From the NCBI GenBank assembly GCA_964559135.1, contig CAZLGG010000001.1, positions 72,163 through 136,162 of the forward strand: a stretch of 64,000 nt of DNA, in the 5' to 3' direction. The stretch's first letter is position 1. The number at the start of each line of letters is the position of its first letter. A program made the position numbers and the translations under genes. The notes under the pieces are model-generated. The model was not told where the DNA came from. It ran no database searches and saw nothing but the letters and a program-made list of their open reading frames with translations. The DNA is from an uncultured Planctomycetia bacterium. GTDB lineage: Bacteria; Planctomycetota; GCA-002687715; DRQF01. Shown here one piece after another: positions 16,856 to 47,216 of the stretch.

Positions 16856-16927
16856 GAAAGGGAACTCCGATGTGAACCCGGGGATTGTATCCCCAGGTCC
16901 TTCGTCACGCGAGAGAGGGAGACGATC

Positions 16928-16956
16928 GACGGCGGCTCGTTGTTGGAGCCGCCGTC
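16928..16956 (-). terminator. Perfect 11-bp stem / 7-nt loop hairpin (GACGGCGGCTC-GTTGTTG-GAGCCGCCGTC), ~19 nt downstream of the etfA stop
   Basis: Inverted repeat read directly. Placed where an etfBA terminator is expected. No canonical U-run. Confidence 0.45.
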
Positions 16957-16974
16957 GTGGGGGCGGAAGACGCC

Positions 16975-17952
16975 TCAGGCGAGGGTTTCCTGGAATGCCT
17001 TCGTGAGAGCCGGGACGACTTCGAAGAGGTCGCCCACGATGCCGTAGTCGGCGACCTTGAAGATGGGAGCCTCCGGATCCTTGTTGACGGCAACGATGAC
17101 CTTGGCCGTCCGCATGCCCGCCAAGTGTTGGATGGCCCCGGAGATCCCGATGGCGAGGTAGAGATTCGGGCTGACGACCTTGCCCGTCTGACCCACCTGG
17201 CTGGCGTGGTCGATCCAACCGGCGTCCACGGCGGCGCGCGAGGCGCCCACCGCGGCTCCCAGGACCTTGGCCAATTCCCGCAGGGGCTCGAAGCCCTCGG
17301 GCCCCCCCACGCCGCGGCCTCCGGCCACCACGATCTCGGCCTCCGCGACGTCGAGGTCGCCCTTATCGCCTCGGGTGATCTGCTTCACGACGGCGCGGAT
17401 CGTCGAGGGTTCGAAGGCGAGGGGCAAGGCTTCGACCGCGCCTTCGCTTCCCGGGGCGATCTCCTTGGCGGCCATCGTGTTGGGACGCAGGCCGAGGAAG
17501 AACGGTTCACCTTCTCCGTGGGTCCAGGCCAAGGCCTTGCCGGCGAACACGGGGCGTCGGACGCGCAGGGCTCCATCCGCAACTTCGAACCCCGTGCAGT
17601 CCGAGGCCAGAGGAGCCCCCAGCTTCGCGGCCGCCCAGGCAGCGAGGTCCTTACCCATGATCGTTGCGGGGACGATGACCGCTTTGGGAGAGACCATCTC
17701 GATGGCCTGAACCAGACAGCGTCCGTAGCCGCCCGTGGAGTAGAGCGCCAGGAAGTCGTGGTCGGCGGCGAGGATGCGATCCGCACCCCACGCGGCGAGC
17801 CTTGCGGCGTCGTCCTGGATGCCGTGGCCGACGACGAGGGCGGTCACGGGTCCTCCCAGATCCGCCGCGAGATTCTTCGCGGCGGTGATGGCTTCGAAGG
17901 CCGCTTTCTTGCAGCGGCCGTCACGCACTTCGCAAAATGCCAGAACAGACAT
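16975..17952 (-). CDS. etfA: Electron transfer flavoprotein alpha subunit
   Basis: N-terminus [29 protein letters not shown]-terminal FAD-binding block [35 protein letters not shown]. Confidence 0.9.
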
Positions 17953-17964
17953 GGGGATCTCCTC

Positions 17965-18720
17965 TCAGATCACTTTGGCTTCGTTACGAAGCAACTCGAC
18001 GACCTTGATCGCAGCTTCGGGGCCCTCTCCGACGATTCGGCCTTCGGGGCGGGGAGGAGGCAGCTCCAGGGAGTCAATGACGACGATCGGCGCGGGCGCG
18101 TCCACGGGTTTTTCTTCCATGGGTTTTTTCTTCGCGGCCATGATGCCCTTCAGCGAGGGGTAACGGGGCTCGTTCAAACCCTTCTCCGCACTGATCACCG
18201 CCGGTAGGGTGCCCTCGACGACCTCGACGCCTCCTTCAATCTCCCGCTCGGCACGGAACGCGCCGGATTCGATGGACAGACTCGAGACCTTGGTGACCAC
18301 GGGCCATCCCATGGAGGCAGCCACCTGGGAGGGCACTTGGGCGGAGTCGTAGTCCACCGACTGCTTGCCCATGAAGATGACCTCGGGTTCAAGAGCCTTG
18401 ATTTCGGCGGTGAGCAGGGCCGCGACGGCGGAGGAATCCAGATGCGATGTGTCCGCATCCAGGATCACGGCCCGGTCGGCGCCGCGAGCCAAACCCTTTC
18501 GGATCTCCTCCTTGATCGTCGCGGGGGTTCCCACCGAGAAGAGAACCACTTCTCCTTCGCCGACGGACTCTTTCAGCCGAAGAGCTTCCTCGATGGCGAA
18601 TTCGTCGTACGCGTTCAGTTCGAGCTTGACATCGCTCATGTCGATCGTTTTTTCATCGGAGCCGATCTTCACCTTGGTATCGGTGGAAGGGGCCACGACG
18701 ACGCAAACCGCGATTTTCAT
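17965..18720 (-). CDS. etfB: Electron transfer flavoprotein beta subunit
   Basis: Start at internal MKIAVCVVVAPSTDTKVKI (ATG 18720, GGAG upstream). Sits 12 nt upstream of etfA, with a GAGGAG SD between them. Confidence 0.9.
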   Translation of the reverse strand: MKIAVCVVVAPSTDTKVKIGSDEKTIDMSDVKLELNAYDEFAIEEALRLKESVGEGEVVLFSVGTPATIKEEIRKGLARGADRAVILDADTSHLDSSAVAALLTAEIKALEPEVIFMGKQSVDYDSAQVPSQVAASMGWPVVTKVSSLSIESGAFRAEREIEGGVEVVEGTLPAVISAEKGLNEPRYPSLKGIMAAKKKPMEEKPVDAPAPIVVIDSLELPPPRPEGRIVGEGPEAAIKVVELLRNEAKVI

Positions 18721-18857
18721 GGGAGGGTTGCTCCATTGTTGGACGTGGAGGGGGATCCGTGGATCGAGGACGCGGAATCCTACGGACGGCAACGGGGGGG
18801 ATCAACGGGCGACGTTCGGGGAGAAGGGAAGGGGGGGCCCTTTTTCCTCGGGGGACG

Positions 18858-19859
18858 TCAGATGGCGACGACGGTGCGCCTCGGGTGGTGCATCTTGATG
18901 AACACCTCGGAAACGAGCGGGTCGAAGAATGCTCCTTTTTCGTCCGAGATGATCTCCAAGGCCTGTTCGAGGGATGCCGGTTCCCGGTAGGGCCGCTTGG
19001 ACGTGATGGCGTCGAAAAAGTCGCAAAGACAAAGAATTCGGGCATCCAAGGGGATTTCGTCGCCGGCCAAACCGTCCGGATACCCGGCGCCGTCGAAGCG
19101 TTCGTGGTGATGTCGGATGACCGGAGCGATGTCCTGGAAGGCGGAGACGGGCTTCAGGATGTACTCCCCGATTTCCGAGTGTCGCTTCATGACGGTGTAT
19201 TCCGCGGATGTCAGCCGGTCCGGCTTGTTGAGGATGGCGTCGTCGATGCCGATCTTGCCGATGTCGTGGAGCTTTCCGGCGAAAGCGAGCCGTTCCAACC
19301 GCGCTTGTGTGAAGCAGAGGCCCCGTCCGATCTCGACGGCGTAGGCGGCGACGCGGCGTCCATGGCCGATGTTCATGCGATCCCGTTCCTCGGCCGCACG
19401 GGCGAGCGCGAGGGTCGTCTCCTTCTGCATCTGCGACTCGCGGCGTATCAGGAGTTGGCGCACCTCGTTCGCCTTGCGATTCTTGAGATCACGAATGCGT
19501 TCGACGGTGAAGGCGACTTTCTTCAAGTCATGGGGCCTGAGAAGGAAGTCGACCGCGCCCTCGTGCATCGCGGACACGGCTCGATCCAGATCGATCAGGT
19601 CGGCGGTGACGACCACGTCGATCTCGAGGCCTTCGGTCTCCAGACGGGCCGCAAGGTCGAAGAAAGAAAGCTGGGGGAGATCGATGTCGAAGAGGATCAG
19701 ATCGTAGTCGCGCTCTTGGAGAGCGCGCTTCACCTGAAAGGCCGTCGGCGCACAATCGACATCGAGATTGCGATGGGCGAGGAAGCGTGCGAGCTCCCTG
19801 CGCGTGCGTCCCTTGTGATCAGCCAAAAGAATCCGGAAGGCGCTTGTCCGGCTCATCAT
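18858..19859 (-). CDS. Response regulator: receiver domain fused to an HD-GYP phosphohydrolase domain (RpfG-like, putative c-di-GMP phosphodiesterase)
   Basis: Start at internal MMSRTSAFRILLADHKG (by codon count ~19859; ±1 nt uncertainty in my coordinate reading). Receiver with LILFDIDLP. HD-GYP motifs HDIGKIGI...HHERFDGAGYP. The first 125 codons of the ORF track are low-complexity noise. Confidence 0.8.
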   Translation of the reverse strand: MMSRTSAFRILLADHKGRTRRELARFLAHRNLDVDCAPTAFQVKRALQERDYDLILFDIDLPQLSFFDLAARLETEGLEIDVVVTADLIDLDRAVSAMHEGAVDFLLRPHDLKKVAFTVERIRDLKNRKANEVRQLLIRRESQMQKETTLALARAAEERDRMNIGHGRRVAAYAVEIGRGLCFTQARLERLAFAGKLHDIGKIGIDDAILNKPDRLTSAEYTVMKRHSEIGEYILKPVSAFQDIAPVIRHHHERFDGAGYPDGLAGDEIPLDARILCLCDFFDAITSKRPYREPASLEQALEIISDEKGAFFDPLVSEVFIKMHHPRRTVVAI

Positions 19860-20249
19860 GTCCCCCCTGCGAGATCGCGTAATGAATCGCCGAATCCCGT
19901 CGGCGATGCAACAACCGTCCCCATTTAGGGGGAGAGCTCGAGGTTTGGGAAGAGGGAAAACGCCAAAATTGGACAATTTGTATAAGCGATCCTGGGGACA
20001 ACGGCGCGAAAAACGTTGATAACTTTTCGGAAGACTCGGAAGGAACGAGGAATTCGAGGGCGGATCGTGGGATTCAAGGCAGGTCACCCGTTGCGGGCGG
20101 CCCGGGACAACATGTGGAGATCTCCGGGAGAAAATGGGGAACAGGGGGGAAAACCCTACGGGGCGGACTGGTCGACCAAGAGTCGGGCGCCGGGATTGAA
20201 CGACGAACGCGGTCGTCTTCCCCACGTTTTCCACAGACTTCCCAGAGGT

Positions 20250-21002
20250 TCAGTCAGGATCGCGCTCGGCGAGTTCGGGCATGACGAAGCGACGGCCGAG
20301 GTAGGCGCGTCGGACCCTCTCGTCTTCGATGAGGCGCCGGGCCGGACCGTGCTGAAGGATGCGTCCTTCGTGGATGATGTAGGCGCGGTCGGTCACGTTC
20401 AGGGTCTCACGAACGTTGTGATCGGTCATGAGGATGCCCATGCCCCGCTCCTCGAGTCCCACCACGAGTTTCTGGATCTCTTCCACGGCGATGGGATCCA
20501 CCCCGGAGAACGGCTCGTCCAGGAGAAGGAGTTTGGGTTCGGTCACGAGAATCCTGGAGATCTCCAGTCGGCGGCGCTCTCCACCCGAAAGCAGTGCGGC
20601 TCGGCGTGTCGCCAAGCGGTCGAGGTGCATCTCGGTCAGGATGCGATCGGCGCGGTCGCGTCGTTCGCCGCGGCTGAGGCCGGGAATCCACTCGAGGACG
20701 GCCAGGATGTTGTCCCGGACGGTGAGGCCCTTGAAGACCGACGGTTCCTGAGCCAGGTAGCCCATGCCCAGGCGAGCTCGGCGAGCGACGGACTCCCGGG
20801 TGATGTCCTTGCCGCCCAAGTGAATGCGTCCGCGGTCCGCACGGATGAGTCCCATGACCATGGAAAACGTGGTCGTCTTGCCGGCGCCGTTGGGACCGAG
20901 CAAGCCCACGATCTCGCCGGTGTCGACTTCGATGGAGACGTCATGGACGACGATCCGTCCCCCGTACCTTTTGTGCAGGCCCTCGGCGACCAGAAAGCTC
21001 AC
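20250..21002 (-). CDS. lptB: LptB-family ABC transporter ATP-binding protein
   Basis: Walker A GLLGPNGAGKTT, YLAQEPSVFKGLTVRDNI, signature LSGGERRRLEISR, Walker B LLLLDEP. 250 aa. No lptA/lptC adjacent, so the lptB call is family-level. Confidence 0.7.
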   Translation of the reverse strand: MSFLVAEGLHKRYGGRIVVHDVSIEVDTGEIVGLLGPNGAGKTTTFSMVMGLIRADRGRIHLGGKDITRESVARRARLGMGYLAQEPSVFKGLTVRDNILAVLEWIPGLSRGERRDRADRILTEMHLDRLATRRAALLSGGERRRLEISRILVTEPKLLLLDEPFSGVDPIAVEEIQKLVVGLEERGMGILMTDHNVRETLNVTDRAYIIHEGRILQHGPARRLIEDERVRRAYLGRRFVMPELAERDPD

Positions 21003-22648
21003 CGAATCACTCCGATCTGCAGCGGCGGCCAGAAGACCAGATAGGCGCGGCCCAGAACGAATTCCTTGGGTACGTAGTGGTCGTACCAGGTCTCGACGGG
21101 CACGGGACCTCGTTCGGGATGGAAGGGGTCCGGAACCATTTCGATGCGGTCGGGATCGATTTCCCTCAGGTTTCCGAAGACGTCGATGAATCGGGTGTTG
21201 TCGTCGAAGGGGTTGTGCATGGGGCGCAGCGCCAGCTCGGAAGGCGTCGACCCCTCGTGGTGGCGGTTTTCCGCGCCGACACCCTCGAAGTCGCCGCTCA
21301 GGACGGCCACATCGCCGTTCTCACCCCGATAACGAAGATCCGCCCTCTGAAAGGCGCGGCAGTCGAGGCTATTGGGCGAATTGTCTCCCAGCATGAGGTA
21401 GTGGTCCGCAGGAATGGAAAAGTCCGTGACGCCCGAGAAGCTGTAGTAGAGATCGCGAGCGAGATCGATATCTCGCATCCGTACACGGCCGCCGGCACAG
21501 CCGAAACTGACCCCGTTGTCGTAGGGCAAATCGTGCGTGGGCTGGACGGGGACCTCCCTCGGCTCCACGGCCGGAGGCGGGCTGGTTTGGCTGCTTTCGG
21601 GAATCGCCCCGACGACCGGAATCATCGGATGCTCGTAGGTCTTCGAGAAGACCTGGTCGCCATCCACTTCCACAAAGATGGCGTCGTCCACGTTGGCGAG
21701 CGAAACGGGGGTCCAGCTGTCGGTCTCGAGCTTGGCGTCGATGGGGAATGACTGGTCACCGAAGACGAGGCGGCTGGAATCGTCAGACCCCTTGGAGGCC
21801 AACTCCAGCCGAATGACTCGGCCGTGCGTGCCGTCGCGAATCTCCATCACGAACCGTCCCTTGTCCTCTCGGGGATTCACGTCCATGGCCAACCGAATAT
21901 CTCCGACCTCCGCCTCGTGCCCGGGGACGGGCCCAGTCCCCTGGGCGGGGCCTGCAAGGCCGAGCATGAGACCGATGGACGAGCGAGGGGGCACGATGGG
22001 CGCAAAGTCGTCGAAACGGCGGTTGCTGATGGCCGGGCAGGGCTGACCTGCTCGCACCGCGTAGCGGGCTGGCAAGGTGAACGAGACGAGATTCATGCCG
22101 TTTTTCGCGTCGAATTCGATCTCTTCGTCGTCCACGAGAACACGCACGTCACCCTGACCGCGATCGCCTTTTTCCTGTTTCCAGTAGCGCCGGAATGCCT
22201 GCGTATTTCGATCCTCGGGGGGGATGCACTTCAAAAGGTCGAAGAGTTCCTCCTGGACGTTGGCCGGCTTGCGTTGGATCTTGGCCTGCTTCAGCGCTTC
22301 GTCGTGATCCAGCTCCGCGGGCGCCGTGTAGATATCGCCGTTTCGGATGAACAGCCATTCCGGACCGATTCCGACGAGGCGCTTCACGTAGTTCATCAGC
22401 CGTTCGAGCGGGTACCGGAACACGACGACTTCCCAGCGGCGAGGATCGCGCACCTGGTAGACGTACTTGTTCACGATGAGTCGGTACCCCCCCTCGGGTC
22501 TGCCGATGATGACCGGCTCCATCGACTCGGTGGGCACCTGGAAGGCCTCGAACGCGAATTGCTTGATGAGAAGAGCCATCACGACGGCCACGGCCAGGGA
22601 TTCGATCGTTGCCCTGTACCGCCCGCGTTCTTCGGGTTTTGCGCTCAT
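20999..22648 (-). CDS. lepB: Signal peptidase I (S26), long paralog 1 (549 aa)
   Basis: N-terminal TM (LAVAVVMALLIKQFAF). Catalytic Ser box ESMEPVI. Lys box VKRLVGIGPEW. GDN box YLMLGDNSPNSLD. C-terminal LGRAYLVFWP. Large insertion between the boxes. 4-nt overlap with lptB. Confidence 0.85.
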   Translation of the reverse strand: MSAKPEERGRYRATIESLAVAVVMALLIKQFAFEAFQVPTESMEPVIIGRPEGGYRLIVNKYVYQVRDPRRWEVVVFRYPLERLMNYVKRLVGIGPEWLFIRNGDIYTAPAELDHDEALKQAKIQRKPANVQEELFDLLKCIPPEDRNTQAFRRYWKQEKGDRGQGDVRVLVDDEEIEFDAKNGMNLVSFTLPARYAVRAGQPCPAISNRRFDDFAPIVPPRSSIGLMLGLAGPAQGTGPVPGHEAEVGDIRLAMDVNPREDKGRFVMEIRDGTHGRVIRLELASKGSDDSSRLVFGDQSFPIDAKLETDSWTPVSLANVDDAIFVEVDGDQVFSKTYEHPMIPVVGAIPESSQTSPPPAVEPREVPVQPTHDLPYDNGVSFGCAGGRVRMRDIDLARDLYYSFSGVTDFSIPADHYLMLGDNSPNSLDCRAFQRADLRYRGENGDVAVLSGDFEGVGAENRHHEGSTPSELALRPMHNPFDDNTRFIDVFGNLREIDPDRIEMVPDPFHPERGPVPVETWYDHYVPKEFVLGRAYLVFWPPLQIGVIR

Positions 22649-22667
22649 GAATTGCCGTCCTTCCGAG

Positions 22668-24176
22668 TCACCGAATGAATGCCATACGTTCCCAGGGCAG
22701 AAACACCACGAGAGCTCTTCCGAGGATGAGCTTGCGGGGGACGAAGGGAAAGCACGTTCGCTTCAGCCGTTTCCACGGCCTCGCTCCTTGCCCCAGGTCA
22801 TGTATGTTGCCGAACCGATCCAGAAACCTCCAGCGCGACCCGGAGGCGTCTCCGAGTTGGTCCTCGCGCCAAGGATTGTCGATGCGTACGGAGAGGTTTT
22901 CGGGGTCCGGAATGGCCTCCGCGTCGCCCTCGTAGACTTCCCCGTCCTTGGTCTCGATTTCCATCCGCACCCATTCTCGGCTGTCCTTGCTGGACGGTGA
23001 GTTGTCGCCCAGGAAGAAGTACGAGCCTCGAGGGATGTCCCACGAAAAATGGCGCATCCCGCTGCAGTTTCCGCGGCGATAGTAGATGTCCCGGTAGACC
23101 TGCGGTCGACGGAAACGCGCCGCGGCGTCCTGGAGACCGAATGCGATTTTCTGCTGGTCGTTGAACCGATTGGACGTGGCGCGAGGCATGTGCCGGTAGG
23201 TCGCTCGGGCGACGATTTCGCCGTCGACCTCCAAGAGGACTTCGTCGTCCACGTTGGTGAACGCCAAGTTCGTCCATGTGTCGGGGGAGAGGTGGAAGTC
23301 GCCGAGGTCCGCCAGCTGCTCCTCGTCGCGGAGCAGGACTCCCTGCCTGGGTTCATCGCCGATGGGCACCCTTGCTTTCAGCCGTCCCCCGTGTTGCGGA
23401 TCGATGATCTCGAACACGATGAATCCGCGGTGGGTCGTCGGCTTGGTTTCGACTTCGACTTGAACGTCTCCGACGACATACTCCCCCCAGACATTGTTGG
23501 GCGAGAGGTCCTCGAACTTGTTCCTTTGATCCCTGACGGTCTCGCGAAAAATCGCGAACGTCGGCTGTTGGGACGCGGCCAGAACTCCTCCCTCATCGAA
23601 CTCCCAAGTCTTGTGGTCGGGAAGCGGCGACCCTTCGAAGTGCCACGACTTCCGGAGAGTCTCCTCGTCGGTGCGATCGAGGGTCTCGGGGTCGATTTGC
23701 GGGTATCGGTGGAGCATGGCCTCTCGGACGGCATCCGGTTTTCGGGCGATGTGCAGGCGGTTTTCCGCGAAGAGTTTTTCCGGGCGCTCTCCGGCCGCAT
23801 TCACCGGTCCGGTCCAGATGTCGCCGTCGATGATGAACAGGGACTCGGGCCCGATACCGATGACGCGCTTGATGTAGTTCACGCGCAAATCGTTCGGGTA
23901 GCGAAACACCCAGACCTCGAATCGCCGCGGATCGCGAAGGAGTCCGGTGATCTTGTCCACGAGGATGCGGTCTCCGTCGTCCTCGGAACCGTGGATCGTT
24001 GGCTCCATGGAGCCCGTGGGAACCTTGTAGGCCTCGCCCACGAATTGCTTCACGAGGAGGGCGAAGATGATCGCCGAGACGAGAGCTTCGATCGTTTCTC
24101 GAAAGACCGGAGTGCGGTGGATGGATGAGGCCCTGCCCCCCTCCGCGTCGCGGCCGGCCTCCACGGCATCATTCAC
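22668..24176 (-). CDS. lepB: Signal peptidase I (S26), long paralog 2 (502 aa)
   Basis: TM (LVSAIIFALLVKQFVG). TGSMEPTI. IKRVIGIGPESLFI. FFLGDNSPSSKDSREW. LGRALVVFLPW. Blocks collinear and similar to paralog 1. ATGA overlap with the lepA stop. Confidence 0.85.
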   Translation of the reverse strand: MNDAVEAGRDAEGGRASSIHRTPVFRETIEALVSAIIFALLVKQFVGEAYKVPTGSMEPTIHGSEDDGDRILVDKITGLLRDPRRFEVWVFRYPNDLRVNYIKRVIGIGPESLFIIDGDIWTGPVNAAGERPEKLFAENRLHIARKPDAVREAMLHRYPQIDPETLDRTDEETLRKSWHFEGSPLPDHKTWEFDEGGVLAASQQPTFAIFRETVRDQRNKFEDLSPNNVWGEYVVGDVQVEVETKPTTHRGFIVFEIIDPQHGGRLKARVPIGDEPRQGVLLRDEEQLADLGDFHLSPDTWTNLAFTNVDDEVLLEVDGEIVARATYRHMPRATSNRFNDQQKIAFGLQDAAARFRRPQVYRDIYYRRGNCSGMRHFSWDIPRGSYFFLGDNSPSSKDSREWVRMEIETKDGEVYEGDAEAIPDPENLSVRIDNPWREDQLGDASGSRWRFLDRFGNIHDLGQGARPWKRLKRTCFPFVPRKLILGRALVVFLPWERMAFIR

Positions 24177-25987
24177 TCGTCACGGTCCAGCTTCAGGGCC
24201 GCGAAGAAGGCGGACTGGGGAATCTCGACGTTGCCCACCGACTTCATGCGTCGCTTGCCTTCCTTTTGCTTCTCGAGCAGCTTGCGTTTGCGAGTGATGT
24301 CGCCGCCGTAGCACTTGGCCGTCACGTTTTTCCGCATCGCGCGGATGTTCTCGCGGGCGATGATCTTCCCGCCGATCGCCGCCTGCAACGGAATCTCGAA
24401 GAGGTGGCGGGGGATTTCCTTTTTCAACTTGATGAGAAGCTGCCGCCCCTTGCGCGTCGATTCGTCCCGATGGACGATCATGCTCAGCGCGTCCACGTCC
24501 GTCCCGTTCACGAGGACTCTCAGCTTCACGAGATTCGCCGCGCGGTACTCCTTCACATGGTAGTCCATGGTCCCGTAGCCCTTCGTCGACGATTTCAGCT
24601 TGTCGTAGAAATCGAAGATGATCTCCGAGAGTGGGATCTCGTAGTGGAGAAGGACCCGCTCGGTGCCCAGGTATTCCGTCTTGACGTAGGCGCCGCGGCG
24701 CTCTTCGCAGAGCCGCATGATCGCTCCGATGGCCGTGCTGGGGACGATCATGCTGACTTCGGCGATGGGCTCGCGGATTTCCTTGACCGTGCCGTCGTCC
24801 GGAAACTTCGAGGGGCTGTCGATGAGGAATTCGCGGTTGTCGGTCGTCTGGAGTTCATACGTGACATTGGGGGGCGTTTGGACGAGGTCGATTCCCGATT
24901 CCCGTTCCAGGCGCTCCTGGACGATCTCCATGTGGAGAAGGCCCAGAAATCCGGCGCGGAATCCGAACCCCAGGGCATCGGACGTCTCGGGTTCGAAATT
25001 GAAACTGGCGTCATTCAGGTGCAGTTTGTCGAGGGCCGCGCGCAGGTTCTCGTAGTCGCCCGGGTTGCTGGGATACAGCCCGCAGTACACGAAAGGCCTC
25101 GGTTCTTCGTAGCCGGGTAGAGCCTCGACGTCGGTCTTTTGATGAGTGACCGTGTCGCCGATCTTCACGTCATGAATCGTCTTGATATTGCAGATGAGAT
25201 AGCCGACCTCTCCCGTCGAGAGTTCATCCACGGCCACCATGTCCGGGCGGAACTTGCCGAGTTCGAGCACTTCATAGGCCTTGTGGGCGCCGAGCATCCG
25301 GATCCGATCGCGCTTTTTCACGCGGCCGTTCACGACTCGGACGTAGACGATGACGCCCCGATAGTCGTCGAAGACCGAATCGAAGATCAATGCCTGGAGT
25401 TCTGATTCCGGATCGCCGCTCGGCGCGGGGATGCGGTCGACGACACGGTTCAGCAACTCGGCCACGCCGGCTCCGGTCTTCGCCGAGATGTGCATGACCT
25501 CTTCGGCGGGCAATCCCAGGACCGACTCGATTTCCATGGCGACTTCGTCCGGTCTGGCCACGGGGAGATCGACCTTGTTGAGGACCGGAATGATTTCCAG
25601 ATCGGAGTCGACGGCCAACCACGTGTTCGCGGCCGTTTGCGCCTCGACGCCTTGAGCCGCATCGACGAGCAGGACGGCGCCTTCGCAGGCCGCCATGCTG
25701 CGGGAAACCTCGTAGCTGAAGTCCACGTGTCCCGGCGTATCGATCAGGTGCACGATGTAGGGGATGCCATCCTTCTCCCAATGGATCTCCACAGCCTTCG
25801 CCTTGATGGTGATGCCGCGTTCACGCTCGAGATCCATGTCGTCGAGGAGTTGGTCCCTCCGATTGCGTTCATTCACGGTACCCGTGATCTCCATGATCCG
25901 GTCCGCGAGGGTCGACTTGCCATGGTCGATGTGCGCGATGATGCAGAAATTCCGAATCCGCGCTGTCTTGTTGTTCGATTCTGGCAT
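24173..25987 (-). CDS. lepA: Elongation factor 4 (LepA)
   Basis: Start at internal MPESNNKTARIRNFCIIAHIDHGKSTLADRIM (ATG 25987, overlapping the rdgB stop as TGATG). G-domain motifs and C-terminal LepA region. Confidence 0.92.
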   Translation of the reverse strand: MPESNNKTARIRNFCIIAHIDHGKSTLADRIMEITGTVNERNRRDQLLDDMDLERERGITIKAKAVEIHWEKDGIPYIVHLIDTPGHVDFSYEVSRSMAACEGAVLLVDAAQGVEAQTAANTWLAVDSDLEIIPVLNKVDLPVARPDEVAMEIESVLGLPAEEVMHISAKTGAGVAELLNRVVDRIPAPSGDPESELQALIFDSVFDDYRGVIVYVRVVNGRVKKRDRIRMLGAHKAYEVLELGKFRPDMVAVDELSTGEVGYLICNIKTIHDVKIGDTVTHQKTDVEALPGYEEPRPFVYCGLYPSNPGDYENLRAALDKLHLNDASFNFEPETSDALGFGFRAGFLGLLHMEIVQERLERESGIDLVQTPPNVTYELQTTDNREFLIDSPSKFPDDGTVKEIREPIAEVSMIVPSTAIGAIMRLCEERRGAYVKTEYLGTERVLLHYEIPLSEIIFDFYDKLKSSTKGYGTMDYHVKEYRAANLVKLRVLVNGTDVDALSMIVHRDESTRKGRQLLIKLKKEIPRHLFEIPLQAAIGGKIIARENIRAMRKNVTAKCYGGDITRKRKLLEKQKEGKRRMKSVGNVEIPQSAFFAALKLDRDE

Positions 25988-26613
25988 CAGAAGTTTTGTC
26001 GGTTCTCGATGATGGAAAGGAGACTGGGGAACGAGCTTTTCAGTTGCTCGAGAGCGCGGCCTCGGTGGGAGACCTGCGCTTTGCGCGGCCCGTCCACTTC
26101 GGCGAAGGTCTCTCCCCATTCAGGGTACAGAAACAAAGGATCGTAGCCGAACCCCCCTTCGCCCCGAGGACTTTCAAGAATTCGGCCCCGGACCACGCCC
26201 TCGGTCGTCAAATGAACCTCCCCCGGACTGGCCACCGCAATGACGCATCGAAACTGGGCGCCCCGCTGCTCCTCGCAGATGCCTTCCAATTCTTCCAACA
26301 GCTTGGCGTTGTTCGCCGCGTCGTCCCCCTCTTTTCCGGCGTAGCGCGAGGAGTGGACTCCGGGTGCGCCCCCGAGGGCGTCGACTTCGAGGCCTGAATC
26401 GTCCGCGACGCAAATCTCACCGCATTGCTCCGCATACCACAGAGCTTTCTTTTTCGCGTTTTCGGCGAACGTGCGGCCGTCTTCGACGGCGGTTTCCACG
26501 CCTGGACGGACCTCTTCCACGGAAACGATTTCGCAACCCAAGGGGGCAAGGATCTGCTTCATCTCCGAGAGCTTTTTCGGGTTTTTCGTCGCGATGACCA
26601 GCCGTCGAGCCAT
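25987..26613 (-). CDS. rdgB: Non-canonical purine NTP pyrophosphatase (dITP/XTP pyrophosphatase, Ham1/RdgB)
   Basis: MARRLVIATKNPKKLSEMKQIL...GFGYDPLF. 208 aa. Confidence 0.88.
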   Translation of the reverse strand: MARRLVIATKNPKKLSEMKQILAPLGCEIVSVEEVRPGVETAVEDGRTFAENAKKKALWYAEQCGEICVADDSGLEVDALGGAPGVHSSRYAGKEGDDAANNAKLLEELEGICEEQRGAQFRCVIAVASPGEVHLTTEGVVRGRILESPRGEGGFGYDPLFLYPEWGETFAEVDGPRKAQVSHRGRALEQLKSSFPSLLSIIENRQNF

Positions 26614-26622
26614 GGTGTCTCC

Positions 26623-27348
26623 TCAACCCAGGCGAATCAGGGCCCGGTTTTGAATGGACGCGATCGTCTGAATGCCCTGTTCGGCCATCTCCAGACACGA
26701 GAGGAATTGGTTTCGGGGCAACGGGCGCTTCTCGGCCGTTCCCTGGACCTCGATGATTTGCCCCTCGTGGGTCATGACGAAATTGAGATCCGACTCTGCC
26801 TGGGAGTCCTCCTCGTAGGTGGGGTCGAGCAGGGGTTTCCCGTCCACCACCACCACGCTCACCGCCGCCAAGCCTCCTCGGAGGGGGTCTTTCTTGAGAA
26901 CTTTCTCCCCGCGGAGTCGATGCACCGCGTCATACAGGGCGATCCAGGCTCCCGTGATCGAAGCGGTCCTCGTCCCGGCGTCCGCCTCCACGACGTCGCA
27001 GTCGAGCCAGAGCGTGCGAGGCCCCAGAGCCTTTTGGTCCACGATCGTGCGGAGCGATCGGCCGATGAGCCTTTGAATCTCCACGGTGCGCCCGTCCAGG
27101 TTGACGCGGCGACCGTCCCGAATCTTTCGTTGTCCCGTGGAACCCGGGAGCATGCCGTATTCGGCGCTCACCCAGCCCAGTCCCTTGTTGTAGAGGAAAG
27201 GAGGCACCTGCTCCTGGACGGTGGCCGTGACGATCACCCGTGTCCGTCCCCATTCGATGAAAACAGAGCCGGCGGCGGAGGGGACGAAGTCCCGGGTGAT
27301 CTTGATGTCCCGGAGTTGGTCCGGGGCGCGGCCATCGGAGCGCGACAT
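26623..27348 (-). CDS. rph: Ribonuclease PH
   Basis: RAPDQLRDIKITRDF...AEYGMLPGSTGQR...LDCDVVEADAGTRTASITGA. 241 aa. Confidence 0.9.
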   Translation of the reverse strand: MSRSDGRAPDQLRDIKITRDFVPSAAGSVFIEWGRTRVIVTATVQEQVPPFLYNKGLGWVSAEYGMLPGSTGQRKIRDGRRVNLDGRTVEIQRLIGRSLRTIVDQKALGPRTLWLDCDVVEADAGTRTASITGAWIALYDAVHRLRGEKVLKKDPLRGGLAAVSVVVVDGKPLLDPTYEEDSQAESDLNFVMTHEGQIIEVQGTAEKRPLPRNQFLSCLEMAEQGIQTIASIQNRALIRLG

Positions 27349-27738
27349 GACGTATCCTCTTGCTCTGTATATATTTGAGACTCAGTCGCCAAGGCTGCGC
27401 ATTATAGGGGCCCTCCCGGTCGCGAACAAGCGCTCCTCGCCCAGGCCCTCCGGGTGGAAAACGAGCGGATGTGAACGAACGCAGGCCGGGTGGGCGGAGC
27501 CCCACGAGCCTCGAGATTCCCCCAAAGGGTGAGAATCGGCGACACCCGGTTGACGGTCGCATTTGCAAGGTGTCACAACATTTATCTATGTCATGGGTTG
27601 TGTCGCCTCCTTCGATGGGCCGGCCGACTCGGTGCCTGGGAACGGCGCGGACCCATTTGGTGCCACGATTCGGTATGAGGCTTGCGTACATCATGTTGGA
27701 GCGTCTTTTGTAGCTCGGTTCGGAACGGAGTCGACACG

Positions 27739-29883
27739 ATGCGTCGATCACAGTCCTCGATCTTTTTGATCCTCACCTTTCTCCTCGGTCTGGTCGCAAC
27801 GGCCTCGGCCCAAGTCCGTCCCGTACGGCCGGTGACGTCGACTCCCCGGGTCGGTCCGACGGGCAACGGCGGGACCCATCGTCCGACGCGCCCGACACCT
27901 CCCGACGGCCGTCCTGGACGGCGTCGGTCCAGGCCGCAGTCGACGCCGACGCCCGCGGGCGGGGGGGCGCCCGGGTCGTTCACTCCCTCCGGAGTCGGTG
28001 AGGCCAGTCCGCGCCCCGTGGAGGGCGTCGGAAGTCCTTCACCTACCGGCCCCGTCCCCGGAGGGAGCGGCGGGACCACGCCCACCCCCGTCTCGACGCT
28101 GCCCACGCCTCCGGGGCTCGCGGGTTTCGGCATTCCCCGGGCCGCCGACCCCTCGCCTGCGCCCTTGCCCAAGGGGGGCGAGACCGGGCCTTTGGGAGAC
28201 GCGAATTCCGAGGACAGTTGGCTGAATTGGTGGCGGCTCAACGAGGCCTGGTATCTCGACCTCGAGCGCCGCTATCTGTCGAGAAACCGAGAGCGCGAGC
28301 TCGATGCGGATCTCTTCACTCCCGCGGACACTCCGGTCGCCCGTCCCGCGGATGCCACTTCGGAAGTTCTTCGCTCCCGAGTTCTTCCCGTCTTGAAGCG
28401 CCTGACGGCTCACAGTCATCCCGGCGTTCGCGCCGAAGCCGTCTTGGCTCTCGGCAAGATCGGGCAGCGCATCGATCTCCCTTTGATCACGCCCTTGCTC
28501 TCGGATAAGGACAAGAATGTTCGGAAGGCCGCCATCCTGGCCCTGGGACTCTTGAAGACCCCGGCGTCGCGGCCGTTTCTTTCGTCGATCCTCAAGAGCC
28601 GTCGGAGGCAGGATGCGGAGATCGCCTATGCGGCGGTCGCCCTGGGCTTGCTGGGACAAAGAAAAGCTGTTCCTGTTCTGATCCAGCGACTGAAGCAGGG
28701 TCGGGGTGTCCGCGAAGTGGAATCGTCCATCCTGTATGCCCTGGGGCTCCTCGATACGCCCCGGTCGCGCGCCTTCCTCGAGTACTACGTTTTGTCGCCG
28801 TCGCGGGATGATGTCCTCCGTTCGGTGGGCGTGCAGGCTCTGGCTCTGGGCGGCCATCCCGAGTCGATCGACGTGTTGCTCCGCGTCGTGGACGATCCGG
28901 ACGTGAACATCCGCCGCAGCGCGGTCATCGGCCTTGGCCGGGTGCGGTTCGTCAGCCCCTTCGCGATGGACTTGGAGGTCGCTGAACGGGAGTTGGCGGA
29001 GCACTTCGACGGAGACGGTACGGAGCGCGCCGACCTCATCGCCGGCGACTATCTCGGCCGGCTTCGCCTGAAGGCCGAAGAGGACACGCTTCGACTTGCA
29101 GCCCTGAAGGAGGATGTCGTGGCGCGGCTCGTCAAGGACGGTCTCGGGGACAGCGACGTCATGGTGCGGAACTTCGCGGCGTTGGCTTTGGGGGAGTTGG
29201 GGGGCACCCAGGCGCGCAAGGCTCTGCAGCACCTTCTCGAGACGACGCGTCTCAACTCGACGCGGGCTTTCGCCTCACTGGGTTTGGCCGTCGACGGCGA
29301 CAAGGCTGACCGCAAAGTCGTCTTCCGGCGCTTGGCCAAGGGACGTATCGATCCGTCGACCCGCGCCGCGATGATGCTTTCGCTGGGTCTTCTGGGTGAA
29401 GGGGGCGTCTCCGACTTCGCCATCCGACGTCTCCAGAACCTGGGCGACACCACCAGTTCTCGCTTCGCCGCGGTGTCGTTGGGGCTCGTCGGTGAGAAGA
29501 GAGCCCTGCCGTTTCTCCGCACTGGGGTGACTCGCAGCGGACGCCCCGAACTGAAGCGCGCCTTCGGTCTGGGCCTGGCTCTCTTGGGTGACACCGAGGT
29601 CGTGAAATCTCTCGGAAAACTATTGAACGCATCCAAAGCCAGTGAAACCCGGATTCAGACGGCGGCCGCGCTTTCCGCGATCAACGACATCTCCGCCATG
29701 GACGTCCTCTTGAAGGCCGCCACGTCGAAGAAGCACAAGGCGAAGGATATCGAGTTGGCGGCGTTCGCGCGCGCCATCGGCGTCATCGGGGAGCGGGGCT
29801 GGCGCCCCATCCTCTCGCCGGTGTTCCGGCATCTGAACTACCTGACGCCGGTTCAGGCCTTGAGGGAGATCGCACTGCTCTGA
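27739..29883 (+). CDS. Secreted HEAT-repeat (PBS-lyase-like) protein with an N-terminal Pro/Thr/Gly-rich linker
   Basis: Start at internal ATG 27739 (MRRSQSSIFLILTFLLGLVATASAQ signal peptide; GGAG 12 nt upstream). ~100-aa P/T/G-rich low-complexity segment. Then repeated xVRxxAxxALGxxG HEAT-like units. Confidence 0.75.
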   Translation: MRRSQSSIFLILTFLLGLVATASAQVRPVRPVTSTPRVGPTGNGGTHRPTRPTPPDGRPGRRRSRPQSTPTPAGGGAPGSFTPSGVGEASPRPVEGVGSPSPTGPVPGGSGGTTPTPVSTLPTPPGLAGFGIPRAADPSPAPLPKGGETGPLGDANSEDSWLNWWRLNEAWYLDLERRYLSRNRERELDADLFTPADTPVARPADATSEVLRSRVLPVLKRLTAHSHPGVRAEAVLALGKIGQRIDLPLITPLLSDKDKNVRKAAILALGLLKTPASRPFLSSILKSRRRQDAEIAYAAVALGLLGQRKAVPVLIQRLKQGRGVREVESSILYALGLLDTPRSRAFLEYYVLSPSRDDVLRSVGVQALALGGHPESIDVLLRVVDDPDVNIRRSAVIGLGRVRFVSPFAMDLEVAERELAEHFDGDGTERADLIAGDYLGRLRLKAEEDTLRLAALKEDVVARLVKDGLGDSDVMVRNFAALALGELGGTQARKALQHLLETTRLNSTRAFASLGLAVDGDKADRKVVFRRLAKGRIDPSTRAAMMLSLGLLGEGGVSDFAIRRLQNLGDTTSSRFAAVSLGLVGEKRALPFLRTGVTRSGRPELKRAFGLGLALLGDTEVVKSLGKLLNASKASETRIQTAAALSAINDISAMDVLLKAATSKKHKAKDIELAAFARAIGVIGERGWRPILSPVFRHLNYLTPVQALREIALL

Positions 29884-29916: not shown

Positions 29917-32544
29917 TCACGGTTCGACGGCCCTGGCCGCGCGAAGTCCCAAGTTGTAAAGAGGCGTCTCCGGCAAGAGCTTGTCCCTGTTGGCGGAACG
30001 GGCGCGGACGGCCAGATAACTGAAACAGCCGCCTCGAAACACCCGTTCCGCGGTGGACGATTTCAGGAGAAGCCCGGTACCCGGGGTGTGTCCTCCTTCA
30101 TAGGGTCCGAAAGCGTCCTCGCACCACTCCCAGATGTTGCCATGGACGTCGTAGAGCCCGTAGCCGTTGGGGGCGAAGCTCCCCACGGGAGCTGTCATCG
30201 GAAACCCGTCTTGGATCCCCTGCTCATAGATCACGCCGGCTCCGAATCCTTCGAGGAATGACTCGTCGGCCAGGTTGGCGTACTTCGCGCACTGGAAGAC
30301 GTCGTCGCCGAAACTCCAGGGCGACGTCGTGCCTCCCCGCGCGGCGAATTCCCACTGAGATTCCGTGGGCACGGCGAGCCCGAATCTGGTGAGCAGTTGT
30401 CTTGCCCTGAACCACGTGACGTTCTCCAAGGGTCGCATCAGGCATCCCTCGTCATCGAGACGTCCACCGCTGGTTTTCGCGGTCCAATAGGAGGGGTCGT
30501 GTCCCCCCGACATCCTCATCCATTGCGCACGCGTGATCTCGAACTTCCCGATGAAGTAACTCGTCAAACTCACCGGATGAGGGGGCGATTCGTCCTCTTC
30601 GGCTGAAGAATCGTAATTCGCCTTGTCGGCTGAGGAGGCCTGAGCTCCCTGCAGGAAGGTCTTGGCGGGGAGGAGAACCAGGATGATTCCCGTCGTGGCG
30701 TCAAACGGAGTCAGGAGTCCCGCCGCATCCCGATGGGGATAGGGGGCTCCTCGCTCGTGACTGGCCCAGTGGAGAAACTCCTCGTGGCCGGAACTGGGGT
30801 CGGGGCCCAGCGGAACGAGGCCCTCCTGCGGACGGACGACGAATCCCCGATACCGCTCGTTGCGTCGCATACGATCGGCGCAGGCCTTCCAGCGAGATTC
30901 GGCGTCGACAAGCGTGGCAAAGACCAGGGCTTCGGAGGCCTCTCGGCGTTTTCGGAGTTCGGCGAGGCCTCCGTCCGGGGCGTTCACGAATCGCCCGAGA
31001 TCCCTCACCAACTCCGTGAGAACCTCGTGTTTCCAAGCGAGAAAATTGGCATCGGGTTCGGGGAAGGTCCAGGATTCGTGGGGGGCGGACGGCGGCCGGC
31101 CCAACGCCTCGAGCTTTCGCAGGGCGCGTTCATGCTCCGCCAGCCGTTCCACCAAGGCCCGGTAGCGGGATTGAAACGCGTCGATTCTCGGGATGAGAGC
31201 TCGTCCGAGCGGCCAGAGGTCTTCGATATCCCGCTGGGCTTCGGCCATCAGTCGCACGTCCGCCATGCGCCGGGCCTCCGCGAGGGCGCCGACGGCTTCG
31301 TTCGTCTTGGTAACGAGGAGTCGATTCGTTCGATCGAGTTCCTTGTTTTTCCAAGTCGTCCAGGCGAGTCCGGCCACGAGAAACAAAAAGAGCGCGGAAC
31401 CCAGCGAGGCGATGACCGGATTGCGTCTGGCCCAGAGCGTCAATCTCGTGACGGCTCCCGTGGAGCGCGCTTGAATGGGCTCGAAGCGTTGAAAGCGTCT
31501 GAGGTCGTCGGCGAGACCCCTCGCCGTCTGGTAGCGGCGGTCCGGGTTCTTCTCCAGGCACCGGTGGACCACGACCTCGAGGTCCTTGGGGATTTCCGCA
31601 TTGAGGCGACGGAGCGACGGTGTCGGCTCGAAATTGATTTTTCGATAGAGCCCTTCACGGGTGGGGGATTCGAAGGGGCGCTGAAGCGTGAGGCTCTCGA
31701 ACAGGGCGACTCCCAGGGAATAGATGTCGGAGCGTCGATCCACGCGAATGCGATTGGCCGCCAATTGCTCAGGAGACATGTAGGCGGGGGTTCCCATGAA
31801 GTCGCCTGTCATCGTCAGCTGGGGCCCGTCGCCTCTCTCGTCGTGAGCGAGGCCGAAGTCGAGGATCATCGCCCCGCCCGTCGGTGTGACCATGAGGTTG
31901 CCCGGTTTGATGTCGCGGTGCACCAAGCCCGCTTCATGAGCTTCGTGAAGAGCGTCGGCCGCACTCTCGAAGAACCGCACGATGCGGAGGATTTCGGGTC
32001 TGGCAGGTCCCCCGGTGCGGCTCGCGCCCGGTGAGCGTGATGCGTCATCCCGGCGGACATCCGGAATGGCGACCGTGGAGATGAATTCATCGTGTTGGGC
32101 GGGGGCGTCGGGCCCCTTCGTGGCGTGGCTTTCCGCGATGCGTTGCTGGAGAGAACTTCCGTCCACGAGTTGCATCGCGATCCACGGCAGGCCGTGGGCT
32201 TCACCGAACTCGTAGACGGAGCAGATCCCCGGGTGGTCCAGCCGCGAGGCGACTTCGGCTTCGCGGGCGAAGCGCGCCACGATGCGGGAACGGAGGGTCG
32301 GGTCGACGAAGTCGAGGCGTCGGCTGAGCAGCTTGAGAGCCACCTTGCGGTGCAGGCGATTGTCTACCGCAAGGTAGACCTCGCCCTGCCCTCCGCTGCC
32401 CAGCAGACGGAGGAGCGTGAAATGCGCGATCGTCTTTTGGGCAGGTTCCGACGAGCCGTCGATCCCACCTCCGATGACGGTGGGCGGACTCAGGTCATCG
32501 ACCGGTTCGGTCGGGGAGTTCTTCGGGGGATCGTCATTCGTCAT
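29917..32544 (-). CDS. Ser/Thr protein kinase with a TM segment and a C-terminal FGE-sulfatase (SUMF1-like) domain
   Basis: Kinase motifs GSGGQGEVY, VALKLL, HRDIKPGNLMV, DFGLA, SPEQ. Hydrophobic helix VIASLGSALFLFLVAGLAW. C-terminal WEFAARGG...YGLYDVHGNIWEWCED...RVFRGGCF, typical of the formylglycine-generating-enzyme fold. Confidence 0.85.
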   Translation of the reverse strand: MTNDDPPKNSPTEPVDDLSPPTVIGGGIDGSSEPAQKTIAHFTLLRLLGSGGQGEVYLAVDNRLHRKVALKLLSRRLDFVDPTLRSRIVARFAREAEVASRLDHPGICSVYEFGEAHGLPWIAMQLVDGSSLQQRIAESHATKGPDAPAQHDEFISTVAIPDVRRDDASRSPGASRTGGPARPEILRIVRFFESAADALHEAHEAGLVHRDIKPGNLMVTPTGGAMILDFGLAHDERGDGPQLTMTGDFMGTPAYMSPEQLAANRIRVDRRSDIYSLGVALFESLTLQRPFESPTREGLYRKINFEPTPSLRRLNAEIPKDLEVVVHRCLEKNPDRRYQTARGLADDLRRFQRFEPIQARSTGAVTRLTLWARRNPVIASLGSALFLFLVAGLAWTTWKNKELDRTNRLLVTKTNEAVGALAEARRMADVRLMAEAQRDIEDLWPLGRALIPRIDAFQSRYRALVERLAEHERALRKLEALGRPPSAPHESWTFPEPDANFLAWKHEVLTELVRDLGRFVNAPDGGLAELRKRREASEALVFATLVDAESRWKACADRMRRNERYRGFVVRPQEGLVPLGPDPSSGHEEFLHWASHERGAPYPHRDAAGLLTPFDATTGIILVLLPAKTFLQGAQASSADKANYDSSAEEDESPPHPVSLTSYFIGKFEITRAQWMRMSGGHDPSYWTAKTSGGRLDDEGCLMRPLENVTWFRARQLLTRFGLAVPTESQWEFAARGGTTSPWSFGDDVFQCAKYANLADESFLEGFGAGVIYEQGIQDGFPMTAPVGSFAPNGYGLYDVHGNIWEWCEDAFGPYEGGHTPGTGLLLKSSTAERVFRGGCFSYLAVRARSANRDKLLPETPLYNLGLRAARAVEP

Positions 32545-38119: not shown

Positions 38120-38192
38120 GCCAGCGTAGCTCAGTTGGTAGAGCAGCGGTTTTGTAAACCGCAGGTCGTCGGTTCGAGCCCGACCGTTGGCT
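38120..38192 (+). tRNA. tRNA-Thr (anticodon UGU)
   Basis: Cloverleaf read by eye. Acceptor GCCAGCG/CGTTGGC (one G-U), D-arm TAGCTCAGTTGGTAGAGC, anticodon loop TTTGTAA, T-arm GTCGG-TTCGAGC-CCGAC. Confidence 0.8.
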
Positions 38193-38306
38193 CTTCAATC
38201 ACCGGCTGCGAGGCTGGGCGTTCGTTAGTCAAAGGCATGTGAGGCAGAGGGTTACGACAGAATCTCTTTTCGGGATCTGAGGTATTCCTTCGGCGGATCA
38301 GCCTCG

Positions 38307-38390
38307 GGAGAGATGCCGGAGTGGTCAAACGGGGCGGACTGTAAATCCGTTGCGCATCGCGCTACGAAGGTTCGAATCCTTCTCTCTCCA
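38307..38390 (+). tRNA. tRNA-Tyr (anticodon GUA), long variable arm
   Basis: GGAGAGATGCCGGAGTGGTCAAACGGGGCGGACTGTAAATCCGTTGCGCATCGCGCTACGAAGGTTCGAATCCTTCTCTCTCCA. Acceptor GGAGAGA/TCTCTCC. Anticodon loop CTGTAAA. Confidence 0.85.
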
Positions 38391-38459
38391 CTGGGAGGCC
38401 GCGCCTCGCGGTCAAGTTTTTTGGGATGCCTTCCCTGGAAGGCTGTTGATGAATTCGCT

Positions 38460-38531
38460 GCTGCTGTGGCTCAGAGGTAGAGCACGTCCTTGGTAAGGAC
38501 GGGGTCGCGGGTTCGATTCCCGCCAGCAGCT
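38460..38531 (+). tRNA. tRNA-Thr (anticodon GGU)
   Basis: Acceptor GCTGCTG/CAGCAGC. Anticodon stem-loop CGTCC-TTGGTAA-GGACG. T-arm GCGGG-TTCGATT-CCCGC. Overlaps the spurious N-terminal extension of the tuf ORF in the track. Confidence 0.8.
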
Positions 38532-47197: not shown

Positions 47198-47216
47198 GCG
47201 ATAGGGGACGGCGAGC

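Follow-up and report, generated by a model that had tools for sequence, protein, structure and literature searches.

The question raised by this locus is what two adjacent and very long genes for signal peptidase I (SPase I), lepB1 and lepB2, are doing in a compact cluster of ordinary bacterial genes, and what fills their extra length. The DNA analyzed, called the window below, is a stretch of 64,000 nucleotides (nt) from an uncultured Planctomycetia bacterium (GCA_964559135.1, contig CAZLGG010000001.1), and the cluster has the order rph-rdgB-lepA-lepB1-lepB2-lptB. The explanation preferred here, with a probability of roughly 0.75, is a conserved gene cluster with old tandem lepB paralogs, both probably active, each of which is enlarged by a lectin-fold cap and by a second insertion (insertion 2).

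Whether these proteins are signal peptidases at all is the first point to be settled. The first-pass annotation, made from the DNA letters alone, described two adjacent S26 signal peptidases of 502 and 549 amino acids (aa), and profile scores above the cut-offs (22.9 bits for PF10502 and 47 bits for TIGR02227) support this for both. The genes and their core features are the following.

22668..24176, minus strand: lepB1, signal peptidase I, 502 aa, GTG start; PF10502 92.5 bits, TIGR02227 89.2 bits against 47
20999..22648, minus strand: lepB2, signal peptidase I, 549 aa; PF10502 86.3 bits, TIGR02227 82.5 bits against 47
24039..24107, minus strand: LepB1 N-terminal membrane anchor, residues 24-46, a helix in the AlphaFold2 model, aligned to the second transmembrane segment (TM2) of Escherichia coli LepB
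24009..24011, minus strand: LepB1 catalytic Ser56 codon, TCC, in GSMEP, aligned to E. coli S90
23868..23870, minus strand: LepB1 catalytic Lys103 codon, AAG, in YIKRVIG, aligned to E. coli K145
22977..23009, minus strand: LepB1 GDN box (box E), GDNSPSSKDSR, residues 390-400, aligned to E. coli G272-R282
22523..22525, minus strand: LepB2 catalytic Ser42 codon, TCG, in ESMEP, in the alignment column of E. coli S90
22382..22384, minus strand: LepB2 catalytic Lys89 codon, AAG, in YVKRLVG, in the alignment column of E. coli K145

LepB1 and LepB2 are 30% identical over their full length (E-value 6e-61), and in each of them the match to PF10502/TIGR02227 is broken into two parts by an insert. The motif boxes quoted in the first-pass annotation are present and collinear in both paralogs: GSMEP in LepB1 and ESMEP in LepB2, KRVIGIGPE and KRLVGIGPE, GDNSPSSKDSR and GDNSPNSLDCR, and LGRALVVFLP and LGRAYLVFWP. 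An alignment of the catalytic Ser and Lys to E. coli LepB had been proposed as a check, and the equivalents of S90 and K145 are aligned in both proteins. The corresponding residues of E. coli, LepB1, and LepB2 are S90/S56/S42, K145/K103/K89, G272/G390/G421, R282/R400/R431, and G294/G486/G533. The GDN-box residues align to E. coli G272, S278, D280, and R282, and the LepB2 counterpart of E. coli S281 is Cys.

These residues are nearly invariant. Among 236 aligned homologues, the catalytic Lys and the Ser, Asp, and Arg of the GDN box (S396, D398, and R400 of LepB1) are conserved in all, and the nucleophile Ser is conserved in 234, with a gap in the remaining two. G390 and D391 of LepB1 are invariant in an alignment of 40 sequences. 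A single strongly hydrophobic segment, corresponding in position to E. coli TM2, occurs in each LepB (residues 24-46 of LepB1 and 10-32 of LepB2), with an Arg/Lys-rich sequence just N-terminal to the predicted anchor; in LepB1 it is the sole strongly hydrophobic 17-residue window (Kyte-Doolittle 2.08). By every feature of their sequences, LepB1 and LepB2 genuinely belong to the S26 signal peptidase I family.

The next question is what the extra length consists of. The following segments were delimited.

23043..23819, minus strand: LepB1 insertion 1, residues 120-378; a helical linker (125-177) and a predicted concanavalin A (ConA)-like beta-sandwich (about residues 178-365, 23082-23645)
21422..22333, minus strand: LepB2 insertion 1, residues 106-409; a linker and a predicted ConA-like beta-sandwich, with a low-confidence Pro-rich loop at about residues 345-375
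22746..22970, minus strand: LepB1 insertion 2, residues 403-477; beta-rich, between the GDN box and the FVP..LGRA strand
21077..21349, minus strand: LepB2 insertion 2, residues 434-524; GD..E, NP, and F.D..GN motifs conserved within the clade

A large insert of more than 200 aa between the Lys box and the GDN box had been recognized from the start, and the measured distances bear this out: the stretch that separates the Lys and the Gly of the GDN box measures 287 aa in LepB1 and 332 aa in LepB2, while E. coli has 127 aa there. Structures were predicted with AlphaFold2 from alignments of 40 (LepB1) and 47 (LepB2) homologues. The mean confidence by the predicted local distance difference test (pLDDT) was 87.9 for LepB1 and 87.1 for LepB2, and the predicted template modeling score was 0.85 for both. 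In these models, insertion 1 contains a beta-sandwich of about 190 residues.

Comparison of the LepB1 model with the Protein Data Bank (PDB) by Foldseek gave the carbohydrate-binding module CBM66 (4b1m) with an E-value of 1e-7 and a template modeling (TM) score of 0.59-0.62 on the target. E. coli SPase I ranks below it with an E-value of 7e-7, and further matches are GH16 glucanases, DUF1080 3-keto-sugar enzymes, and botulinum-toxin entries (BoNT HcN). For LepB2, the matches are E. coli SPase I, levanase BT1760 (8a9y, 6r3u), entries of the BoNT/B binding domain, the DUF1080 protein 3u1x, galectins, and LG domains. Nearly all the non-peptidase matches belong to the concanavalin A-like lectin/glucanase fold. 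Across both models the E-values for E. coli SPase I are 7e-7 to 9e-7; these alignments have a root-mean-square deviation of 12-18 Å and a TM-score of about 0.5 on the target, as might be expected if only the catalytic domain were matched.

Sequence profiles point in the same direction with less force. A profile built from 29 inserts gave marginal matches, mostly to ConA-like domains (SHBG LG, galectins, neurexin, laminin LG, and the thrombospondin N-terminal domain). The Pfam family 3keto-disac_hyd was touched weakly by three of the 29 inserts, with a best E-value of 5e-4, and matches to Laminin_G_2/3 were also weak; for the LepB1 insert, Laminin_G_3 gave a sub-threshold match (E-value 0.1; 13 bits against a cut-off of 27.6). 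These weak profile matches arise from a LamG-like motif, W..v.F.NvDD.l.l.VDGe.V. At relaxed thresholds, Pfam gave nothing for the LepB2 insert. The predicted structures, in turn, show a jelly-roll (ConA-like) fold for insertion 1.

Insertion 1 is only part of the answer. The initial account of the extra length was right about the insert before the GDN box and overlooked a second one, insertion 2, which adds about 75-90 aa after the DSR-x-W/F of the GDN box and before the C-terminal FVP..LGRA box. The GDN-box Arg and the Gly of LGRA are 86 aa apart in LepB1, 102 aa apart in LepB2, and 12 aa apart in E. coli. In the LepB1 model, insertion 2 has strands of high pLDDT at residues 403-409, 414-418, 448-452, 458-463, and 468-475. 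Neither paralog gave a Pfam match in this segment, even at relaxed thresholds. Of the 236 aligned sequences, 164 have insertion 2, counted when longer than 50 aa.

How widely such proteins are distributed was addressed by homology searches. The proteins found by two homologue searches, 192 and 178 in number, have lengths of 291-711 aa; a single one is shorter than 373 aa, and the named ones are almost always "signal peptidase I" from metagenome-assembled genomes of Planctomycetota. A scan with one genome per species gave at least 544 loci; the best 80 of these are almost all from Planctomycetota, including Kuenenia, Scalindua, Tundrisphaera, Stieleria, and Roseiconus. The insert profile matched 4,323 representative proteins at E-values ≤ 1e-3 and 2,936 at ≤ 1e-10, and in the top 150 matches (360-699 aa) the insert is internal. 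Ten of the top-ranked insert-profile proteins were sampled, and nine have a Peptidase_S26 match: it is split by the insert in seven full-length proteins, while two apparently N-terminally truncated proteins have the C-terminal Peptidase_S26 part only. The tenth, a short protein, has no Pfam match.

The "unusually long" size that the first-pass annotation had ascribed to this locus is therefore not a trait of the locus, as LepB proteins that have this insert and a length of 440-700 aa form a family of thousands of clusters. An artefact of assembly or gene fusion is rejected for the same reason. One homologue, P0040 (711 aa, from the Joint Genome Institute), combines Peptidase_S26 with a Ham1p_like (RdgB) domain; it could be either a genuine fusion or an error of gene calling, and it recalls the rdgB/lepB neighborhood. 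The searchable literature yielded no account of signal peptidases of such length in planctomycetes or of an SPase I with a lectin-like domain, and a paper on protein sorting in Kuenenia calls the Sec and Tat components canonical (PMC2881027). The architecture, a lectin-fold cap plus a second insertion, appears to be under-described and not captured by Pfam, and it is common among the sampled Planctomycetota.

It is then to be asked whether both copies are maintained as enzymes. Ratios of nonsynonymous to synonymous substitution rates (dN/dS) were computed against the relative L085, whose LepB1 is 88% identical. They are 0.11 for lepB1 and 0.057 for lepB2, with lepA (0.05) and lptB (0.03) for comparison. 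For the inserted segments, the values are 0.12 (insertion 1) and 0.13 (insertion 2) in LepB1, and 0.07 and 0.05, respectively, in LepB2. As judged from these ratios, purifying selection is shown on every segment of both lepB genes.

Residues that distinguish the paralogs were sought by alignment. The 236-sequence alignment was too noisy for this purpose and gave one column. Realignment of 87 sequences of the relevant clades with E. coli LepB gave the following six columns.

LepB1 Y50, LepB2 F36: E. coli F84
LepB1 G55, LepB2 E41: E. coli G89, adjoining the nucleophile
LepB1 N95, LepB2 L81: E. coli E137
LepB1 K397, LepB2 L428: E. coli A279, within the GDN box
LepB1 A268, LepB2 L281: in insertion 1, with no E. 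coli equivalent
LepB1 P477, LepB2 H524: in an insertion, with no E. coli equivalent

The clade-specific residues lie mostly in the catalytic core and groove and not in the insert. E. coli F84 is a substrate-pocket residue. The differences at the equivalents of F84, G89, and A279, beside the nucleophile and the substrate pocket, would fit two active enzymes with somewhat different preferences, and on this basis a sharing-out of the secretome is inferred.

The age of the pair was considered from relatives and from a tree. Orthologues lying on shared contigs are 39-88% identical for LepB1 and 39-93% for LepB2. The order rph-rdgB-lepA-lepB-lepB-lptB-RR/HD-etfB-etfA-DUF1570 (RR, response regulator) is kept in three relatives, whose LepB2 is 93%, 50%, and 30% identical. 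Because orthologues of both copies are adjacent in relatives down to 30% identity, the duplication in the window is old, not recent.

A neighbor-joining tree was built from 390 columns with 100 bootstrap replicates. The LepB1 clade is supported by 91%, the LepB2 clade by 93%, and LepB2 together with more distant orthologues by 92%. LepB1 and LepB2 form a joint clade (70%) that contains only proteins of the window's lineage. In the tandem pairs of the Isosphaeraceae group (L018, L025, L046, and L050), the upstream and downstream copies form two separate clades, with 98% and 100% support, apart from the window's pair. The tandem copies of L011 and of L068 each group with themselves (84% and 81%). 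A lineage-specific lepB duplication had been proposed, and the joint clade agrees with it in excluding the other tandem pairs of Planctomycetota. The simplest reading of this tree is that lepB was duplicated once, long ago, in the window's lineage and several times independently elsewhere at the same locus.

Six minus-strand genes from rph to lptB had been described, and all six open reading frames (ORFs) were found at those coordinates, each exceeding the curated cut-off of its family. The four genes flanking the lepB pair are listed below.

26623..27348, minus strand: rph, RNase PH, 241 aa, first gene of the cluster; TIGR01966 320 bits against 141.5; Pfam RNase_PH and RNase_PH_C
25987..26613, minus strand: rdgB, XTP/dITP diphosphatase of the Ham1 family, 208 aa; PF01725 E-value 3e-65; NF011397 247 bits against 234
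24173..25987, minus strand: lepA, elongation factor 4, 604 aa from the ATG at 25987; TIGR01393 934 bits against 534
20250..21002, minus strand: lptB, ATPase of the lipopolysaccharide (LPS) export ABC transporter, 250 aa; TIGR04406 (equivalog) 334 bits against 240

The cluster consists of conserved housekeeping genes and is not exotic. Its junctions are tight. Between rph and rdgB there are 9 nt, with GGAG upstream of the rdgB start. The rdgB/lepA junction is TGATG, a 1-nt overlap, provided that lepA begins at the ATG at 25987 (MPESNNK). This is the start in the gene calls of close relatives, which have a product of 602-604 aa and the same 1-nt overlap; the longest lepA ORF, from 26119, would give a 133-nt overlap with rdgB. 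The lepA/lepB1 junction is a 4-nt overlap at the GTG start codon of lepB1, 19 nt including GGAAGGA separate lepB1 from lepB2, and lepB2 and lptB overlap by 4 nt (GTGA). The junctions first described (9 nt, an overlap, 19 nt, and a 4-nt overlap) thus stand, except that the "ATGA" between lepA and lepB1 reads GTGA. Rfam and ARAGORN found no RNA element in the cluster region.

By tblastn, lptB is located downstream of lepB in 65 of 80 Planctomycetota loci, including those of the distant Scalindua, Kuenenia, Pirellulaceae, and Isosphaeraceae, and lepA is directly upstream of lepB in most Planctomycetota loci with enough upstream sequence. The linkage of a signal peptidase gene with lptB is unlike the arrangement in E. 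coli. No lptA or lptC is evident adjoining lptB in the window.

Taken together, the following explanation is proposed. The six genes would be co-transcribed and translationally coupled, which the spacing and the conserved order support. Each LepB would be held by a single N-terminal membrane anchor, with the N-terminus predicted to be inside the cell, and its periplasmic Ser-Lys domain would cut the signal peptides of Sec- or Tat-exported pre-proteins. It is most likely, to judge from the sequences, that both enzymes are active. The cap slot, which domain II takes in E. coli, would be filled by the helical linker and the ConA-like beta-sandwich. The beta-sandwich would mainly be an enlarged non-catalytic cap and may also bind a ligand or partner, while insertion 2 would be a further periplasmic elaboration beside the active-site box. 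The two paralogs may share out the secretome, as the groove residues suggest.

Several observations weigh against this explanation. The jelly-roll fold of insertion 1 rests on predicted structures, and no curated Pfam family of ConA-like domains reaches its gathering score for the insert. The bootstrap support for the joint clade of LepB1 and LepB2 is moderate and comes from neighbor joining only, and the upstream copy of L083 is weakly placed (36%). A scan for promoters and terminators in the cluster found sites no more frequent than in shuffled sequence.

The alternative that survives best concerns the function of the beta-sandwich. It may be a working carbohydrate- or ligand-binding module, which either anchors the peptidase at peptidoglycan, at LPS, or at some glycosylated partner, or selects glycosylated or particular substrates; the insert would then have a part in function, in line with the substrate-selecting module suggested in the first-pass annotation. 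Its best structural neighbors are true carbohydrate binders (CBM66, galectins, GH16, and the DUF1080 3-keto-sugar enzymes), although ConA-like sandwiches also widely serve as inert scaffolds or protein-binding domains, and no membership in a lectin or CBM family was found at the sequence level. Five insert residues, R145, D237, D310, D363, and Y366, are invariant across distant clades, and the dN/dS of the insert is low (0.07-0.12); however, the invariant residues may serve only to stabilize the fold or the contact with the catalytic domain. The linkage of lepB to the cell-envelope gene lptB in most examined Planctomycetota loci also speaks for such a module, whereas the residues that distinguish the paralogs are mostly in the catalytic core and not in the insert. 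On balance, a binding function is possible but doubtful. A LamG-type calcium site formed by D237 and D310 was considered as well and dropped; D310 sits in a hairpin turn typical of the fold.

A second alternative is that insertion 1 is an overgrown form of the known domain II of long Gram-negative LepB proteins, with nothing categorically added. It occupies exactly the same slot, from the Lys box to the GDN box, and domain II is reported to be of variable size and without conserved motifs (PMC4049620). The insert is, however, 160-205 aa longer than E. coli domain II. Alignment of the insert profile with E. coli residues 150-274 (domain II) by hhalign gave a probability of 0.1%, and what aligns is only the terminal YY motif, with E. 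coli MYYQQ; in the Foldseek search with LepB1, moreover, CBM66 stands above E. coli SPase. A plain E. coli-type domain II is rejected, the homology being undetectable, and an overgrown one is improbable. The first-pass annotation had named identity with domain II as the test of its extra periplasmic domain; the hhalign result speaks against that identity, and the ConA-like fold found by Foldseek in the predicted structures supports a real extra domain.

A further alternative is an obligate hetero-complex of LepB1 and LepB2, which would explain the strict adjacency and gene order. The order of the pair and its tight spacing are indeed kept in relatives down to 30% identity. Related lineages, however, have a single lepB at the same locus, e.g., L001-L006 and L008-L009, and bacterial SPase I is known as a monomeric enzyme; such a complex is quite unlikely.

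An inactive SPase-like paralog is known in SpsA of Staphylococcus aureus. That one of the window's paralogs is catalytically dead and serves as a scaffold or chaperone, like SpsA or Streptococcus pyogenes SipA, has in its favor that inactive SPase-like paralogs beside active ones are known (PMC4049620) and that in LepB2 the residue directly preceding the nucleophile is Glu rather than Gly and the second Ser of DSR is replaced by Cys, but it is rejected as very improbable, since the Ser, the Lys, and the S/D/R of the GDN box are kept in both paralogs and all orthologues, and both are under strong purifying selection, with LepB2 the more constrained (0.057).

The preferred reading, two active enzymes with an enlarged cap, leaves room for a wider proposal. 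The ConA-like sandwich, possibly with insertion 2, could be a recognition module widespread in Planctomycetota that couples signal peptide cleavage to envelope glycans or to classes of exported proteins. This is speculative and rather unlikely; if true, the repeated tandem duplications at lepA-lepB-lptB would reflect selection for differing preferences for substrate or location, in bacteria whose secretomes are very large and whose envelopes are unusual.

Signal peptidase I, an essential enzyme, is the target of the arylomycin class of antibiotics, and what its variable cap, domain II, does is not yet understood. A lectin-like cap that is kept under purifying selection, in a gene that has apparently been duplicated repeatedly at one locus in a whole group of bacteria, would offer a natural system for probing the role of the cap domain. 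As for annotation, these proteins of 450-700 aa are rightly called signal peptidase I, while half of each protein, the ConA-like domain plus insertion 2, lies outside any Pfam model found. The architecture would be visible to anyone inspecting predicted structures.

Some further features of the window lie around the cluster. Downstream, on the minus strand at about 15095-20234, there are ORFs at 18858-20234 (with a start probably near 19860), 17965-18792, 16975-17952, and 15095-17218; these four match, by position alone, the response regulator with HD/HD_5, etfB, etfA, and DUF1570 of the relatives. On the other side, a 733-aa ORF at 27682-29883 on the plus strand is divergent from rph and has a Pro/Gly/Thr-rich N-terminal region; the relatives encode a HEAT-repeat protein at the corresponding place. 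Between the HEAT-repeat gene and rph, L081 and L083 have an extra gene for an MsbA-like ABC exporter, which is absent in the window, L084, and L085. An 875-aa ORF follows at 29917-32544 on the minus strand. The L084 equivalent has Pkinase and a C-terminal FGE-sulfatase domain, and by this resemblance the 875-aa ORF would encode a Ser/Thr kinase fused to a formylglycine-generating-enzyme-like domain. Farther away, there is a cluster of tRNA-Thr(TGT), tRNA-Tyr(GTA), and tRNA-Thr(GGT) at 38120-38532 on the plus strand. The only matches to Rfam were three tRNAs at a distance from the lep locus. ORFs of 1237 and 1362 aa at 43484-51305 on the plus strand have the size expected for rpoB and rpoC. The AT skew changes sign near 36 kb.

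Among the closest known systems are the long LepB proteins of cultured Planctomycetia (Pirellulaceae and Isosphaeraceae, with Stieleria and Tundrisphaera; P0059-P0088). They have the same ConA-like insert in the cap slot, share the lepB-lptB linkage, and often have lepA upstream too; tandem pairs also occur in Isosphaeraceae and some Planctomycetaceae, and the genome of Tundrisphaera lichenicola has one (L025). Eight sampled proteins of P0059-P0088 differ in that they are without insertion 2, having 15-19 aa from the Arg to the Gly, and in that they have 105-162 aa between the Ser and Lys boxes, compared with 47 in the window's LepB proteins. This interval is a third variable site of the family.

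With the ConA-like superfamily (CBM66 4B1M; GH16 1GBG; the DUF1080/3-keto-disaccharide hydrolase family PF06439, 3U1X and 8V31; SHBG LG 1KDK), the predicted jelly roll is held in common, at Foldseek E-values of 1e-7 to 1e-5 and TM-scores of about 0.5-0.6 on the target. The LepB insert differs in reaching no family's curated score and in sitting inside an S26-type peptidase.

With E. coli LepB (MEROPS S26; PDB 1B12, 1T7D, and 9NLO), the Ser-Lys dyad, the collinear boxes B to E, the TM2-equivalent anchor, a non-catalytic domain at the same slot, and the gene position directly downstream of lepA are shared. LepB1 and LepB2 have one membrane segment, whereas E. coli LepB has two, and their beta-ribbon between the Ser and Lys boxes has 47 aa compared with 55. 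The cap slot comprises 287 or 332 aa, with a predicted ConA-like fold, here and 127 aa, with domain II, in E. coli, with undetectable sequence homology, and an extra 75-90 aa are present here between the equivalents of W284 and F286.

Both the lepA-lepB linkage and tandem SPase I paralogs are well known. Multi-paralog sets of SPase I include SipS/T/U/V/W of Bacillus subtilis, sipWXYZ of Streptomyces lividans, sipXYZ of Listeria, and spsA-spsB of S. aureus. These S26 genes are often in tandem, and their products presumably serve the secretome jointly or divide it among themselves. At about 170-260 aa they are short enzymes, the cap domain being minimal, and one S. aureus copy is inactive. In the window, by contrast, both copies are long and intact, and they are located between lepA and lptB.

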